Shown here: positions 38,937 to 50,343 of the stretch, piece by piece
Layout: the number at the start of each line of letters is the position of its first letter
Position numbering within the stretch: position 1 is the stretch's first letter
Assembly (NCBI GenBank): GCA_045649045.1
Contig: JAZRPF010000010.1
Location: 1 to 61,260 of the forward strand
Direction: 5' to 3'
DNA length: 61,260 nucleotides
DNA from: Eubacteriales bacterium
Lineage (GTDB): Bacteria > Bacillota > Clostridia > Oscillospirales > CAG-272
The notes under the pieces: generated by a model
What the model was told of the DNA's origin: nothing
What the model saw: the letters and a program-made list of their open reading frames with translations, nothing else
The model's database searches: none
Made by a program: the position numbers and the translations under genes

Positions 38937-38943
38937 TGTGGGC

Positions 38944-40587
38944 TTATGATGCAATGGCATCGGATGTTCTTACGGTATGCTGTTCTCTAAAGCCCACTGT
39001 GAAGACGATGTCGATATCGTTGCCCTCGGTGCGTGACCACTTTTCCTTCTTTTGGTAAAGGTATATCTTGGATACGAATGCGTGTACGATCTCGGGAGTC
39101 AACTCCTGAATATCAATAAATCTATTGGCATTGGCAATGAAATCGTCAATCGAATTTCTTTCCTCACCATAGCTCGCTTCGGCTTCTTCAAGCTCGGCGA
39201 GCTTTTTTGATAGCGTTGCTTGCTCCGTTTCGTAGCTCTGCGCCATCTTATCGTATCGCTCGTCCGTGATACGTCCGCTGACGTTGTCCTCATAGAGCTT
39301 CTGAATGATGCGGTCAAGCTCGTCTATACGCTTGCGTGTTTTGATGATTTCTGCCTTTACTGCCTTGAGTTTTTTCTCGTCCTCATCGCGCTTCTTGGTG
39401 CGAGCCTTCTCATAGAACACCTCGGGATTTTCTCTTGCAAGCGCGGTTACCCAGCGTATCTGCTGAAGAACAATCTGTTCAAGTGCCATAGCGTTGATCT
39501 GATGCGCCGAGCATCTGTCCTTGCCCTTTCGCTGATAAAACCCGCAACTGTAATAGTTTTCTTCGGGGCGCATTGTTTTAGCTCGGTGAAGATACATTCG
39601 ATTTCCGCAACTCGCACAGGCAATAACGTTGTGGAATATATCGACCTTGCCCGACTTATCGGGACGATTACGACCGTCAAGGATAAGCTGTGCCGTTTCA
39701 AAATCAGCTTTGCTGACGAGAGCTTCGTGAGTGTTTTCAAATACCAGCCATTCTTCCTTGGGCAAGCGTATCTGTTTCTTTACCTTGAAGGACTTGATCT
39801 TCGTCTTACAGTTTACGGTATTACCGATATAATCCTGATTGCGAAGGATAGAACGTATCGTGGTGCTTGACCATCTGTAGGGATCCGTGATATCAACACC
39901 GCTGTGTACATATCCGTACTTCTGATACAGATACTGTCCGGGAGTGATGATCTTATCATCCTGCAAGCCCTTTGCGATCTTTTTTAGGTTTGAATCCTTG
40001 AGAAACTCTCGGAAGATTCGGATAACGATATCCTTGGTATCGGGATCGGGAATGATGTGTCCGGGATTATCGGGATCCTTGATATAACCGTAAGGTGCAT
40101 TCGTAGCAAGGCGTTCACCGCGCTTAGCTTTGCTCTGAAAGGTGGCTCTGACCTTGTGACTCGTGGTCTGGGCGTGCCATTCGTTGAAGATATTTATGAT
40201 GCCAAGCTGTTGCTCATTCTCGCTGTGAAAGCTATCATAGTTATCGTTTATAGCGATAAAGCGAACGTCATATTCGGGAAAAGTCAGCTCGATATAGCGT
40301 CCAGTCTCAATATAATTTCTGCCGAGACGGGACAAATCCTTGACGATAATGGTAGCAATCTTTCCATCTTCCATATCCGTCATCATACTTTCGAATCCGG
40401 GGCGATTGAAATTCGTACCGCTGAAGCCGTCGTCAATATAAAATTTCGTATTGCGGAAGCCTTTGCTTTGAGCGTACTCCGTGAGGATCTTTCTTTGATT
40501 CTGAATACTGTTTGACTCCCCCTGCATGGAATCCTCGTGGCTGAGTCTGCAATACAGTGCTGTTATTTTTTCGTTTGTTTCGTACAT
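38944..40587 (-). CDS. large serine recombinase
   Basis: 547 aa from ATG 40587 (RBS AAGGAGAA); resolvase catalytic N-terminus [22 protein letters not shown], recombinase domain, Cys cluster (CASCGN..C..C), C-terminal coiled-coil. Confidence 0.9.
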
Positions 40588-40821
40588 GGTCGTTCTCCTT
40601 TCTACTCTTAAACCATTTGTTTTACAAAACAACCGAATAAGCTGCAAGCATAAAGCTCGTTCAAGCTTGCGAACGGCGTTGCCGGTCGCTGTGAGATGCG
40701 AGCAAATATGCACGCCTTTATCCTGCTTTGAAATCGGAAATCGGTGATTTGGAGCTTCTCCGTAAAAGTACATCTCAATTTCCGCTTTTTCTTTGTTTCC
40801 TGCGGATGAGATTTTGAATCA

Positions 40822-40911
40822 TAAAAAACAAGGGCCGAAATCAAACAAAGCAGAAAGAATATACCCGCTATCTCGGATATACTTTTGAGCTTTTATGTTT
40901 GATTCCGACCC
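40822..40911 (-). terminator. long imperfect hairpin plus T-tract downstream of the repressor operon
   Basis: arms 40832..40847 and 40896..40911 pair 14/16; on the minus strand followed by TTGTTTTTTAT. Confidence 0.4.
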
Positions 40912-40970
40912 TGTGTATTCCCGAATTCACAGCCGGGAGGATGGAACGTATTCGCCACGCGAGGCGGCAG

Positions 40971-41225
40971 TTATAGAGCGACGCGAGTCGCTATGAATCT
41001 TGCAGGCTCGTTCGGTCTTGCGTGTAGAGCCTTGATACAGAGAGCAACCTTCCCATGACAGTGCGGACATTCCAATATGTAATCCGCGTCAGATGCTTCC
41101 GAGAGCCGTTTGAGCTCACTGTCATTTCGCAGGAGCACGTCAGGAACGTCAGCGAAGCGATGGTTGCCGTAGGGACATTTCAGTTTCGGCATATATCTTC
41201 TACCGTCATCTGTTTTTTCCGCCAT
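40971..41225 (-). CDS. hypothetical small zinc-ribbon-like protein
   Basis: 84 aa; KCPYGNH...ECPHCHG; 15 nt downstream of the repressor gene, probably co-transcribed. Confidence 0.5.
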   Translation of the reverse strand: MAEKTDDGRRYMPKLKCPYGNHRFADVPDVLLRNDSELKRLSEASDADYILECPHCHGKVALCIKALHARPNEPARFIATRVAL

Positions 41226-41240
41226 TGAATACCTCCTTTA

Positions 41241-41861
41241 TCACGAGTCAAGATCCTTCATCACCATAGTGGCAACGCCTTGGATCCTTAAATCATTTAG
41301 CTGTTCGCCTTTCAAAATAATGGGCTTGAGTGAATCGTTTTCGGGTACGAGATGCACCTCGCTGTCACTGACGCGGTGGTAGCGTTTGAGGGTAGTGCAA
41401 TCACTTCGATAGAGAAAGGCAACGATCTGACCCTCACGCGCCGTTTCCTGTTTGCGAATGAGAACAAGGTCACCGCTGTCAATTCCTGCGTTTATCATCG
41501 AATCTCCGCTGGCACGCAGAAGGAAGAAATCTCCGCTACCGGTCAAAGCCAAGGGCAATCGGATATGCTCAAGCTCGGCATCGGTCACCTCGGTGAGCGG
41601 ACCGCAAGGAATGGAATTACCCATCTGCACACGGTTGGTGTCCATCAGCTCACGCATATACTTGGTGATGATACCACGGTGACCGTCGTATTCGATCTCG
41701 CCTTGCTCCTGCATGGTTTTGAGATATCTCTGAATGGTGGGACGGGAAGCACCGATCCCTTGCTCGATCTCCCGAGTGGAGGGAGACCTGCCGTAATCCT
41801 CAAAATATTCATTAACAAAATCGATAATTTTTCTGAACAGCGATTCATCTCTGCTTCTCAT
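41241..41861 (-). CDS. LexA/CI-like repressor (wHTH plus S24 self-cleaving peptidase domain)
   Basis: N-terminal HTH (SPSTREIEQGIGASRPTIQRYLK), catalytic Ser in ASGDSM and Lys in TLKRY, LexA spacing; ATG 41861 follows a GGGGG RBS. Confidence 0.85.
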   Translation of the reverse strand: MRSRDESLFRKIIDFVNEYFEDYGRSPSTREIEQGIGASRPTIQRYLKTMQEQGEIEYDGHRGIITKYMRELMDTNRVQMGNSIPCGPLTEVTDAELEHIRLPLALTGSGDFFLLRASGDSMINAGIDSGDLVLIRKQETAREGQIVAFLYRSDCTTLKRYHRVSDSEVHLVPENDSLKPIILKGEQLNDLRIQGVATMVMKDLDS

Positions 41862-41882
41862 AAAAGCCCCCTGAAACATAAT

Positions 41883-48872: not shown

Positions 48873-49137
48873 CTTGCAGATTCCTTTCTTTCAATGATTC
48901 TTTGTACTGCTCACGGTACTCAGCAAGTGTCGCGCCGTTGGCAGCAGAATAGTGATCCTCGGGAAATCCATCATATTCCCATCCGCAATGACGGCAAATA
49001 TCGTAATTATCAAGTGTTTTGCGCTTGCAAACGGGACAAATTATAACTGAATGATCCTCGTCATAGGCTGTACCGACGGGTGGTAAAACACGCTTGCCGT
49101 ACTCTCCGCGTATTGCGGCATAAATGCTTTCTTTCAT
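48865..49137 (-). CDS. CPCC-family cysteine-rich protein
   Basis: 90 aa; CPVCKRKTL..YDICRHCGWEYD. Confidence 0.65.
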   Translation of the reverse strand: MKESIYAAIRGEYGKRVLPPVGTAYDEDHSVIICPVCKRKTLDNYDICRHCGWEYDGFPEDHYSAANGATLAEYREQYKESLKERNLQDV

Positions 49138-49700
49138 ATGCGGACCATTTGAACCTTTTCATGCTTTATTTCAGGATAGCCTGAGCAAACTGAGATAAAT
49201 ACTTGTCTGCCCAGAGAAGAAAGCTTATCAAGAATTAAAGTGATGTCGAATGCCTCATCGAGACGGTCGAAATAGCTGTAAATGAAGATAGGACGGTCAT
49301 CATCACGAGAGGTTATGTTGGCGGTTTTAATAAGCACATTGGAATCATCCGTGTCACGCTCGTTGCACTTATCTACAAACTCACGGGTATCGTCCTCTGA
49401 AAAGTGTACACTGTTCGGCTCAAAGTTTGCGGCAAGGCGGTTGTCGCCCATAAAGTCGGCATTGCGGATATAGCATACGCTGTAATTCTTGTTGTCCATC
49501 TCAATGTCTGCGTGGATTACGAAGCGCCCATCGTCAACACGATCGGGATCGTTCTGCGCGCCGTAGTCACCAATTAACTCGCGCAGAAGGTCAAGAGCGA
49601 GATCGGAGTAGTGGCCGTGAAGCATACAAACAGGGGAGGTAATTGTAAAGTCAAGATCGAGGGCAGAGGCAGATGTGATTTGAAGATTGCTAAATTTCAT
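49134..49700 (-). CDS. hypothetical protein, ABC/SMC-ATPase-like layout lacking a P-loop
   Basis: 188 aa; N-terminus laid out like RecF/SbcC heads but HGHYSDLA replaces GxxGxGKS; C-terminal RPIFIYSYFDRLDE resembles Walker B. Confidence 0.35.
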   Translation of the reverse strand: MKFSNLQITSASALDLDFTITSPVCMLHGHYSDLALDLLRELIGDYGAQNDPDRVDDGRFVIHADIEMDNKNYSVCYIRNADFMGDNRLAANFEPNSVHFSEDDTREFVDKCNERDTDDSNVLIKTANITSRDDDRPIFIYSYFDRLDEAFDITLILDKLSSLGRQVFISVCSGYPEIKHEKVQMVRI

Positions 49701-49748
49701 TTTTTACTCTCCTTTTGAGTGAAAATAATAATTATAATCGTGAAAGAG

Positions 49749-49777
49749 ATTATAACACACGATTTAAAAAATTTGAA
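49749..49777 (-). promoter_or_regulatory. candidate promoter of the minus-strand cargo operon
   Basis: minus strand TTCAAA-N17-TATAAT with TG extension; -10 box enclosed by inverted repeat AATCGTG (49736..49742) / CACGATT (49758..49764); second TATAAT at 49731..49736. Confidence 0.45.
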
Positions 49778-49861
49778 ATAAAAACAGGTTGGATTTTGGA
49801 ATCGATGGTTACACGAATAGTATATCACACCGCCTTGCGACATTTATGGTGCATGGTGGGT

Positions 49862-49901
49862 AAAAAAGGAAAACACCACTTCAGTTTTCGTGGTGTTTTG
49901 C
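49862..49901 (-). terminator. terminator after the DUF6809-like gene
   Basis: stem AAAACACCAC/GTGGTGTTTT; on the minus strand followed by CCTTTTTT. Confidence 0.65.
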
Positions 49902-49913
49902 AGCAATACATTT

Positions 49914-50189
49914 TCATTCATCGTGTTCAGATTGTATCTCCAGTGCCAACCGCGCCCCAAGCTTGAAGGCATATTCGAATAATGTCTCGTCAGAGAGACT
50001 TGCGTATTCACTCCAGCAATCCTGGAACTTCTCGAAGATTTTCTTTTGCTCATCCGTCATAGTTTTGAGTAGGTCATCATTATGCCGGCTAATGTATTCC
50101 AACAGTTGCTTCATCTCGAGTGTATTCTTTCTACTGTCCTCGGGTGGCATAATGTTTCCGCACCATAGCTCTTTTATCATACTTTTCAT
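49914..50189 (-). CDS. DUF6809-like small protein
   Basis: 91 aa; ELWCGNIMPPED... recalls a family common on Clostridial mobile elements; RBS AGGAGG. Confidence 0.55.
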   Translation of the reverse strand: MKSMIKELWCGNIMPPEDSRKNTLEMKQLLEYISRHNDDLLKTMTDEQKKIFEKFQDCWSEYASLSDETLFEYAFKLGARLALEIQSEHDE

Positions 50190-50343
50190 AGAACATACCT
50201 CCTGTTAGCATACAACAATACCACAGAAGAGAGAGAAAGTCCAGTCGTTTTTCGAAAATAAAGAACTTTTTCTTGTCGGGCGTTATCTTTGATTTCTGCG
50301 TGGCAATTATTGAGCCTTGAGTTTCACAGTACGGCTTATTAAA

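Follow-up and report, generated by a model that had tools for sequence, protein, structure and literature searches.

The closest described systems to the element reported here are Tn4451/Tn4453 of Clostridium perfringens and C. difficile, with the recombinase TnpX, and Tn5397, with TndX. As in this element, the large serine recombinase carries a DUF4368 tail, the crossover core is 2 bp long, and more than one target site is used. In PMC4430133, TndX is cited as sufficient on its own for integration and excision, a GA core is given as its only requirement in B. subtilis, and Tn5397 is described as preferring a Fic-coding sequence as target. DUF4368 recombinases are furthermore known as multi-targeting (Durrant et al., 2022, PMC10083194; examples Cp36, Pc01, and Enc9), and, as found here, one 90%-identity cluster of this clade occupies many unrelated sites. 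In an example from that study, a dinucleotide core is flanked by outer positions rich in T and A; this target pattern resembles that of the family described below and was interpreted as relaxed AT-rich specificity; the words terminator and palindrome do not occur in its text.

Structured intergenic motifs, which are ubiquitous and gene-free, also serve as safe sites for elements of other chemistry (reverse splicing, DDE/DEDD transposases, and RNA guides). Class C group II introns use the position directly behind intrinsic terminators, and IS110/IS1111 elements sit at REP-like repeats. IS1272-type elements replace inverted repeats (PMC5678879). Such elements insert behind the hairpin or replace it, whereas a conservative exchange within the loop is proposed for the present family. 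Tn916 has an end-proximal insulator terminator (PMC11658703), which, as proposed for the present element, stops host read-through into the element from a position near its end; the integrase of Tn916 is of the tyrosine type and its targets are AT-rich, whereas the present element has a serine recombinase and terminators at both ends, which would also replace the host terminator destroyed by insertion. No description of terminator-loop targeting by such elements was found in the literature.

Within the window (the whole stretch of DNA analysed, 61,260 nucleotides), positions 38864-50434 very probably constitute a non-conjugative integrative element, a transposon of the serine-recombinase type, that was inserted by its own TnpX/TndX-like recombinase at a TA in a terminator loop.

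Boundaries of the element and the split host terminator

The preliminary description had placed an ~11.4-kb serine-recombinase island at 38937-50340, at a distance of 8 nt from the rplQ terminator. The existence of the island is confirmed, but the empty sites and a contig that skips it set its edges at 38864 and 50434 (11,571 bp, including one copy of the TA core), and the insertion lies inside the loop of the true terminator, 22 nt downstream of the rplQ stop codon, which is at 38840 as originally read. The suggested search for an empty rplQ-downstream site in relatives had a clean outcome: eight contigs from the same or a closely related species carry the uninterrupted site, and the element is absent from all of them. 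The closest of these contigs, L003, is 99.90% identical to the window across 10 kb of left flank and 99.68% identical across 5.2 kb of right flank. In the empty-site contigs, rplQ and the convergent DapF-like gene share a 17-bp two-way terminator hairpin just behind the rplQ stop, AAAAAAGAAAAGTGACC-GTATT-GGTCACTTTTCTTTTTT, which has folding energies of -21.9 kcal/mol on one strand and -23.1 kcal/mol on the other and a 5-nt loop at whose TA the element is inserted. Furthermore, a metagenome contig (run X1) joins 38861 to 50433 and skips exactly 11,571 bp, with two letters fitting either side, and DNA similarity to related elements ends at 38864-38867 on the left and at 50434 on the right. The crossover core is TA (38862-38863 and 50433-50434), the only overlap of attL, attR, and the empty site, and comparison of the three revealed no target duplication beyond these 2 bp; the edge similarity noted earlier (TTTCTGTGGGC and TTTCTGCGTGGC) has no relation to the attachment sites. 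The features at the two ends are as follows.

38844-38863, left half of the split host terminator (attL side): A-run, 5′ stem AAAAAAGAAAAGTGACC, loop G, and TA
38864-38892, recombinase-proximal attP-derived arm, read from the sequence: N12, then TTAGCGG (38876-38882)
38893-38940, plus strand, left inward terminator, element-borne: 18-bp hairpin and T-rich tail
50344-50379, minus strand, far-end inward terminator, element-borne: 16-bp hairpin, tail UUUAAUAAG
50414-50434, far-end attP-derived arm: CCGCTAA-N12-TA
50435-50453, right half of the split host terminator (attR side): loop TT, then 3′ stem and T-run GGTCACTTTTCTTTTTT
50466-50468, stop codon of the convergent DapF-like gene (281 aa)

Both host halves have the same letters as the L003 empty site, the left one up to the TA. 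The TTAGCGG arm is the mirror of CCGCTAA-N12 at the far end; the terminal ~75 nt at the recombinase end are near-invariant across 24 relatives, and the far-end arm CCGCTAA-N12-TA is kept in the related loci L016, L059, and L009. In the proposed mechanism, the DUF4368 recombinase of the element would carry out conservative recombination at the 2-bp TA in the loop centre of the two-way terminator, and excision would release a circle with a symmetric attP, CCGCTAA-N12-TA-N12-TTAGCGG.

Two hairpins had been assigned to the host, at 38901-38936 as the strong rplQ terminator and at 50344-50379 as the terminator of the convergent core gene; both lie inside the element, the left one being part of it because it falls within the empty-site boundaries. 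The left inward terminator has a fold z-score of -6.1 and is kept in 24 of 24 relatives, and the far-end hairpin also occurs in L059 and L016, while L009 has a different hairpin with a U-run at the same position. The left terminator should block read-through from the rplQ operon and the far-end one read-through from the DapF-like gene. Both probably substitute for the split host terminator and would shield the element from host read-through.

Gene content and the recombinase

The element contains the following features.

38944-40587, minus strand, large serine recombinase, 547 aa, intact, stop codon at 38944-38946
40651/40652, deletion point, where relatives have ~629 bp
40971-41225, minus strand, zinc-ribbon protein (CPYG...CPHC), 84 aa
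41241-41879, minus strand, LexA/CI-like repressor: winged helix-turn-helix and S24 self-cleaving peptidase
41880-42062, both strands, divergent promoter region
42063-45870, plus strand, cargo operon of four genes
46282-50189, minus strand, cargo operon, same gene order in L059
46282-46312, terminator closing the minus-strand cargo operon
46324-46683, minus strand, MazF/PemK toxin, last gene of that operon
46740-47837, minus strand, PolC-fragment-like protein, 365 aa

The recombinase has its catalytic Ser16 within YCRLSHED and matches Resolvase (PF00239, 2.9e-28), Recombinase (PF07508, 1.5e-20), Zn_ribbon_recom (PF13408, 1.2e-12), and, at its C-terminus, DUF4368 (PF14287, 4.8e-12, above the cut-off); it possesses the resolvase domain with a Ser nucleophile, the recombinase domain, and the zinc ribbon by which large serine recombinases are recognized. 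Because its best solved relative in the PDB is the TnpX catalytic domain (2mhc, E 2.5e-40) and it is 37.7% identical to an annotated tndX product over 95% of its length, it is classified by sequence as a distant member of the TnpX/TndX-like DUF4368 multi-targeting clade.

Both the 547-aa recombinase with its stop at 38944 and the run of non-housekeeping genes from there to ~50.4 kb had been recognized correctly. The reported AT-richness is modest (GC 0.433 versus 0.474 in the rest of the window), the tetranucleotide distance of the element is 0.214 against a host-window maximum of 0.180, and the recombinase/LexA-like part, with a GC of 0.467, is no different from the host. The LexA/CI-like repressor (PF00717, 2.7e-19, and PF01726; PHROG CI-like repressor and UmuD-like families) carries a GDSM Ser, a Lys, and a Cys-Gly candidate cleavage site, and its gene occurs together with the 84-aa zinc-ribbon gene in L011, L016, L025, L034, L036, and L059. 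The adjoining promoters are TTGACA-17-TATAAT on the minus strand (12/12) and TTGAAA-17-TATAAT on the plus strand (11/12); with these divergent consensus promoters, the self-cleaving repressor would control expression of the cargo and possibly of the recombinase. The plus-strand cargo encodes a 242-aa acidic protein, proteins of 270 aa (weak OGG/HhH-like match) and 199 aa, and a 563-aa protein with a zinc ribbon and a BspA-type leucine-rich repeat; other genes replace segment 42724-43655 in the sister element L059. The minus-strand cargo comprises, in order, DUF6809 (49914-50189), a 188-aa protein, a CPCC zinc protein, a 195-aa protein (phrog_3754), a 161-aa protein (weak phosphatase-like match), the 365-aa protein, and MazF/PemK.

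None of the 15 ORFs is a type IV secretion or conjugation gene or a relaxase, and the element was thus rejected as an ICE. A Tn4451-type mobilizable transposon was likewise rejected: no ORF has a relaxase, Mob (TnpZ), TnpV, or TnpW match in Pfam, NCBIfam, or PHROGs. The element differs from Tn4451/Tn4453 and Tn5397 in having no TnpZ-type mobilization protein, TnpV, TnpW, conjugation module, or resistance gene, and in the position of its recombinase gene, which lies at the element end and points outward.

A decayed prophage or phage satellite whose phage integrase was strictly site-specific, with its attB downstream of rplQ, would be compatible with several features: the recombinase matches a PHROG 'integrase' family, a CI/LexA-like repressor accompanies divergent promoters, several cargo proteins match function-unknown PHROGs, and small virome scaffolds encode recombinases 36-49% identical. 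This origin is nevertheless highly improbable. As the preliminary description had stated, capsid, tail, terminase, conjugation, and replication-initiator genes are not recognizable; the element yielded no PHROG or Pfam match to genes for capsid, portal, terminase, tail, lysis, primase, replication, or packaging redirection, and an IMG/VR search returned no relative. The multiple insertion sites largely refute it, with near-identical recombinases at 25 different sites and a second locus that holds the same element. The original view of a foreign island placed by its own serine recombinase, neither prophage nor ICE, holds.

Insertion sites of related elements

Recombinases 83-98% identical to that of the window (most 93-98%) were found in ~24 further Clostridia contigs, where the cargo is different. 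Their flanks are 25 distinct, unrelated sequences, and nearly all of the recombinases at these 25 flanks are at least 93% identical, i.e., the multi-targeting behavior that defines the clade by recombinases at least 90% identical at many sites. The sister element L059 (94.5% identity across 6.8 kb) occupies a second terminator-like site (TAATAAAAAAACGCCGACTG, then TA). All 25 junctions have a GC-rich half-stem and a T-run beside the element end, and further far-end flanks in metagenome contigs have a stem and a T-run as well. The T-run starts 8-15 nt from the junction in 25 of 25 flanks; in the control, 7% of positions have such a run (binomial test, P = 1.5e-29). T makes up 80% or more of the letters at positions 13-20 counted from the junction, and core position 2 is A in 22 of the 25 sites; the junction position is uncertain by ~2 nt in 8 of the 25 loci because the first two element bases vary. 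Stem sequences are unrelated from site to site. Two sites, those of the window and L016, allowed the full target to be rebuilt from both halves, the others being represented by one half; the L016 target is a perfect palindrome (-31.2 kcal/mol). The element family is multi-site, uses terminator hairpins in general, and has no tie to the rplQ site.

The family differs from the described transposons in its core, TA or NA instead of GA, and in its targets, terminator loops instead of the Fic-coding sequence preferred by Tn5397; since TndX targets the latter, terminator targeting is not clade-wide. Compared with the pattern in PMC10083194, the outer A- and T-runs here enclose GC-rich inner arms and correspond to terminator hairpins, and the window element carries its own replacement terminators.

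In the proposed mechanism, a recombinase dimer would select double-stranded palindromes composed of an A-run, ~8-10 bp, an NA core, ~8-10 bp, and a T-run. In practice, targets of that form would be two-way terminators, so any genome or replicon would offer harmless landing sites. It appears fairly probable that this DUF4368 lineage evolved to accept the general two-way-terminator layout (A-run, GC-rich stem, short loop containing the NA core, stem, and T-run) as attB and that the inward end terminators co-evolved, repairing the destroyed stop. If so, the family could land in any genome, plasmid, or phage whatever the host, would constitute a dispersed cargo-cassette system of gut Clostridia, and would offer a naturally occurring model for 'safe harbour' integration at terminators.

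Near-random insertion with the NA core as sole requirement would produce the same pattern if only insertions in harmless intergenic spots persisted, and it would agree with the relaxed specificity described for DUF4368 recombinases (PMC10083194) and with the GA core that suffices for TndX in B. subtilis (PMC4430133). The fixed distance of all 25 junctions from the T-run, however, contrasts with 7% of random positions, the insertions lie within the loop and not just close to terminators, it is not obvious that a split terminator is neutral, and selection alone would permit any intergenic position. We regard this explanation as very improbable.

Recognition of DNA shape rather than duplex sequence, through an extruded hairpin or cruciform or a single-stranded hairpin as in integron attC and IS200/IS605, is less easily set aside but still unlikely. 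It would suit the unrelated stems, the variable T-run start, and the two fully known targets, both of which are almost perfectly palindromic and have the core precisely within the loop. By contrast, every characterized serine recombinase works, to our knowledge, on double-stranded sites bound by a dimer (cf. PMC3783163), a symmetric dimer requires a palindrome anyway, and duplex half-site read-out agrees with T being preferred at fixed positions (13-20) and with A as the second core letter. Against the proposed read-out of duplex sequence by a dimer, the 8-15 nt range of the T-run start is looser than a rigid sequence read-out would predict.

Deletion upstream of the recombinase gene

The 629 bp that relatives have at 40651/40652 comprise a conserved ORF of 144-150 aa, present in 19 related loci and missing from the window, and, immediately ahead of the recombinase gene, a -10 box of the TGnTAATAT type, which is likely the recombinase promoter. 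Therefore, the window copy may be impaired, being unable to move on its own or reliant on read-through transcription. It is possible, though somewhat less likely than not, that this copy was inserted as proposed above and is now a stranded relic that can no longer excise or transpose because the small ORF and the recombinase promoter were lost. The eight empty contigs agree with immobility, as does the failure to see a circular form: neither the back-joint of 50434 to 38864 nor another excision product was seen in eight public runs, whose assembled contigs show presence, not absence. Against immobility, TnpX and TndX need no helper (PMC4430133). The recombinase gene is intact, as are both ends, and the strong promoter of the LexA-like operon could transcribe the recombinase gene by read-through. 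The structure model of the small ORF product is poor (pLDDT 54.6).

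Empty site and exact ends of the element

An exact-sequence look-up of the L17 protein led to eight metagenome contigs with 51 bp between rplQ and the convergent gene and no island, and the empty rplQ-downstream site for which the preliminary description had proposed an alignment of relatives is thus present. The island is absent from all eight, which belong to the same or a closely related species, and its insertion therefore looks recent and rare. Searches for exact protein matches to the recombinase and to a 321-aa reading of the DapF-like gene returned none. The features that frame the insertion are as follows.

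Features at the edges of the element (window coordinates)
37451-38437, rpoA, near the end of the ribosomal operon
38460-38840, rplQ, last gene of the ribosomal operon
38893-38940, plus strand, inward hairpin against read-through from rplQ
38944-40587, minus strand, large serine recombinase of 547 aa (Resolvase, Recombinase, Zn_ribbon_recom, and DUF4368; Ser16 in YCRLSHED)
50344-50379, minus strand, inward hairpin against read-through from the DapF-like gene
Stop at 50466, convergent DapF-like gene, outside the block
Beyond the block on the side of the DapF-like gene, FGGY kinase gene

The closest empty site, in contig L003, matches the window with 99.90% identity across 10 kb of left flank and 99.68% across 5.2 kb of right flank. 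Its intergenic sequence, CACAAAAAAGAAAAGTGACC-GTATT-GGTCACTTTTCTTTTTT, contains a 17-bp hairpin with folding energies of -21.9 and -23.1 kcal/mol, one per strand; because it folds on both strands, the intact hairpin between rplQ and the DapF-like gene is a two-way intrinsic terminator. The sequences across the two junctions in the window are GTGACCG-TA-CTCTCTGC (left) and GCACGCCC-TA-TTGGTCAC (right), with TA as their sole overlap; therefore, the element spans 38864-50434 (11,571 bp) and is inserted at the TA of the 5-nt loop. A contig assembled in a public run (X1) joins 38861 to 50433 and skips 11,571 bp, with flanks free of mismatches and two letters at the joint compatible with either side. 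The circular junction was not seen in the assembled contigs of eight public runs, and no indexed run holding the exact window element at the rplQ site was found.

The preliminary description was right in placing a serine-recombinase island behind rplQ, and its edges (38937 and 50340) are corrected by the empty sites and the X1 contig. With ends at 38864 and 50434, the hairpins at 38901-38936 and 50344-50379, previously assigned as the terminators of rplQ and of the convergent gene, both lie inside the element and belong to it, a case of an element-borne hairpin mistaken for a host terminator from which annotation can learn. The insertion point is accordingly not 8 nt behind the rplQ terminator but at the TA in the loop of the two-way terminator, and the weak edge similarity (TTTCTGTGGGC) noted there is irrelevant to the attachment sites, whose real overlap is TA only. 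Strong inward-facing hairpins with U-rich tails are found at both ends of the element and are conserved in relatives; in the related element L009, an unrelated hairpin with a U-run occupies the same place. These end hairpins would replace the split host terminator and insulate the element, and the replacement would explain why insertion is tolerated right behind the ribosomal operon.

Relatives and the pattern of target sites

When genome and metagenome contigs were scanned for relatives of the recombinase, approximately 24 additional loci emerged whose recombinases share 83-98% identity with that of the window, mostly 93-98%; these loci derive from many MAGs labeled as Oscillospiraceae, Lachnospiraceae, Anaerotruncus, Eubacteriales, or Clostridia, from human, roe-deer, and other guts. 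The same scan of IMG/VR yielded no relative. DNA similarity to these relatives (~90%) is limited to 40652-38864, the remainder being different, and stops at 38864-38867 in every related locus. The last ~75 non-coding bases at this recombinase-proximal end are better conserved than the recombinase gene. The sister element L059 shares the gene order and, across 43655-50434, 94.5% identity with the window element; it ends at exactly the same base but occupies a different locus, where it follows an HTH gene in the vicinity of oxaloacetate decarboxylase genes.

Outside the recombinase-proximal end, all 25 distinct sites carry a dinucleotide, then 6-13 mostly GC-rich bases, and then a T-run. The dinucleotide is AA (12), GA (6), TA (3), CA (2), AT (2), or GT (1), where TA represents the window and two other loci, and L059 provides a fourth TA site. 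In 25/25 sites, the T-run begins 8-15 nt from the junction, a spacing seen at 7.0% of positions drawn at random from these sequences (P = 1.5e-29); T accounts for at least 80% at positions 13-20 from the junction, and A occupies position 2 in 22 of the 25 sites. Far ends of relatives were sought by fuzzy matching and flank complementarity and were obtained for L016, L059, and partly L009, most contigs being too short. L016 retains both ends, and its reconstructed target, CACCACCAAAAAATAAAGGATGGC-TA-AAGCCATCCTTCATTTTTTGGTGG, forms a near-perfect palindrome (-31.2 kcal/mol); the flank of L059 is TAATAAAAAAACGCCGACTG followed by TA, and far-end flanks in metagenome contigs, TA-ATGCTGAACG-TTTTTT and CGGCGG-TTTTATTTTTTTT, conform to the same pattern. 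L036 offered one further candidate for a far end, which was discarded because it lacks an end-like structure.

The joined ends of the element form a symmetric attP, CCGCTAA-N12-TA-N12-TTAGCGG, with TGCA inside both arms. A recombinase dimer would pair this attP with palindromic double-stranded targets, probably reading out an A-run and a T-run ~24-26 bp apart together with an NA core, features that two-way terminators by nature offer. Survival bias alone, i.e., the persistence of only harmless insertions, cannot explain the pattern, as it would leave insertion in the loop in 25/25 cases unaccounted for. Alternatively, the recombinase may recognize the extruded hairpin rather than the duplex sequence, which we consider unlikely: the preference for T at fixed positions 13-20 fits better with duplex read-out by the zinc-ribbon domain.

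Separately, a 27-nt remnant of the recombinase-proximal end of a second element adjoins a half-terminator (AAGCCATCCTTTGTTTTT) at 5616-5660 of L016. This half-terminator is almost identical to the flank of the full element, which lies 150 bp away, suggesting that one site was used repeatedly or in tandem.

Known recombinase systems and a possible third targeting logic

Serine-recombinase elements are usually viewed as either strictly site-specific, as in phage integrases, or loosely AT-targeting, as in the multi-targeting clade. The present sites suggest a third targeting logic, in which the target is a class of DNA defined by its function, namely transcription terminators. This logic would explain near-identical recombinases across many gut and rumen Clostridia species with different cargo, tolerated insertions even beside a highly expressed ribosomal-protein operon, and the terminators at both element ends. 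For genome engineering, a terminator-finding integrase would provide predictable, gene-sparing insertion in untamed bacteria.

The closest solved structure to the recombinase is the TnpX catalytic domain, and an annotated tndX product is 37.7% identical to the recombinase. Durrant et al. described a "multi-targeting" clade of large serine recombinases, 63% with DUF4368 and including TndX-like transposases, and presented one recombinase whose 21 sites show a TT core and T/A enrichment at the outer positions; neither "terminator" nor "palindrom" occurs as a word in their article (PMC10083194). TndX is sufficient for integration and excision; in C. difficile it favors a Fic-coding site, and in B. 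subtilis it requires no more than a GA core (PMC4430133). A literature search yielded no report linking serine recombinases to terminator targets, and terminator-loop targeting with replacement terminators appears undescribed in the literature searched. Taken by itself, the element is a cargo-only and otherwise ordinary representative of the TnpX/TndX-like multi-targeting class. It differs from Tn4451-type mobilisable transposons in having no Mob, TnpV, or TnpW, from ICEs in having no relaxase or conjugation family, and from prophages or satellites in having no capsid, terminase, tail, lysis, or replication family.

"Bacteriophage sp." scaffolds from human faecal viromes (MT838398.1, MT836419.1, and others; 4-10 kb, unverified) encode DUF4368-type recombinases 36-49% identical to that of the window, and such DUF4368 elements may find their way into virus-like-particle fractions.

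Gene content and state of the window copy

None of the 15 ORFs between rplQ and ~50.4 kb is housekeeping-like. Besides the recombinase, the following were recognized.

Cargo and regulatory genes within the island
Zinc-ribbon protein of 84 aa
LexA/CI-like S24 repressor
Divergent plus-strand operon, with a zinc-ribbon and BspA-type LRR protein as its last gene
Minus-strand operon, from DUF6809 to a PolC-fragment-like protein and an orphan MazF

No island ORF matched capsid, terminase, tail, lysis, replication, relaxase, or conjugation families, and the earlier view that the island is neither a prophage nor an ICE is upheld. An Rfam scan of the island gave no match at E up to 0.1; a weak OGG-like match for a 270-aa protein was the sole PADLOC match reported, with none on the MazF operon. 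The GC content is 0.433 in the block vs. 0.474 outside, which bears out the AT-richness first noted for the block, except in the recombinase/repressor part, where GC does not differ from that of the host. The tetranucleotide distance of the block (0.214) is above that of every host window (maximum 0.180).

The LexA-like repressor retains the S24 Ser, Lys, and Cys-Gly site and adjoins two near-consensus divergent promoters; it may plausibly act as a damage-responsive switch for cargo or recombinase. Furthermore, 19 relatives carry a conserved 144-150-aa ORF immediately upstream of the recombinase gene (2727-3354 in L011 and 9412-9937 in L016) with a TGnTAATAT-like -10 box. The ORF matched no Pfam or PHROG family, and the structure predicted for its 150-aa version was of too low a quality (pLDDT 54.6) to search for similar folds; its product is a candidate for an accessory or directionality factor. 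In the window, precisely this segment of 629 bp, comprising the ORF and the -10-like box, is missing (breakpoint 40651/40652). The recombinase gene and both ends are intact in this copy, and we tentatively entertain that it is unable to move by itself.

Several minor observations concern the cargo and its surroundings. A module is cleanly exchanged between the window (42724-43655; 270-aa and 199-aa genes) and L059 (13656-15502; 304-aa and 175-aa genes, no family match), in elements otherwise 89-94% identical. The 365-aa protein of the 46324-47837 region (minus strand) is similar to an internal part of PolC (NCBIfam PolC models, 5.9e-43; PDB 3f2b residues 416-560; a weak Pol III finger-domain match), and its gene lies directly upstream of the orphan MazF/PemK toxin, the usual antitoxin position. 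The pair is kept in L059 and may be an unusual toxin-antitoxin or defence module. Contigs of bovine and sheep gut runs cover the 5' leader and promoter region of the DUF6809 operon (50196-50262) at a very high summed depth, up to ~600 vs. 5-30 in neighboring sequence, and this segment seems common to many different elements. The lowest-GC stretch of the window (~8000-11500; 0.34-0.39) encodes an AraC-type regulator, a YgjV-like membrane protein, and a weakly WbsX-like protein, with no mobility genes seen there. The convergent gene (50466-51311, minus strand; 281 aa in relatives) gives weak DapF/DAP_epimerase matches below curated cut-offs and may not encode a true diaminopimelate epimerase.
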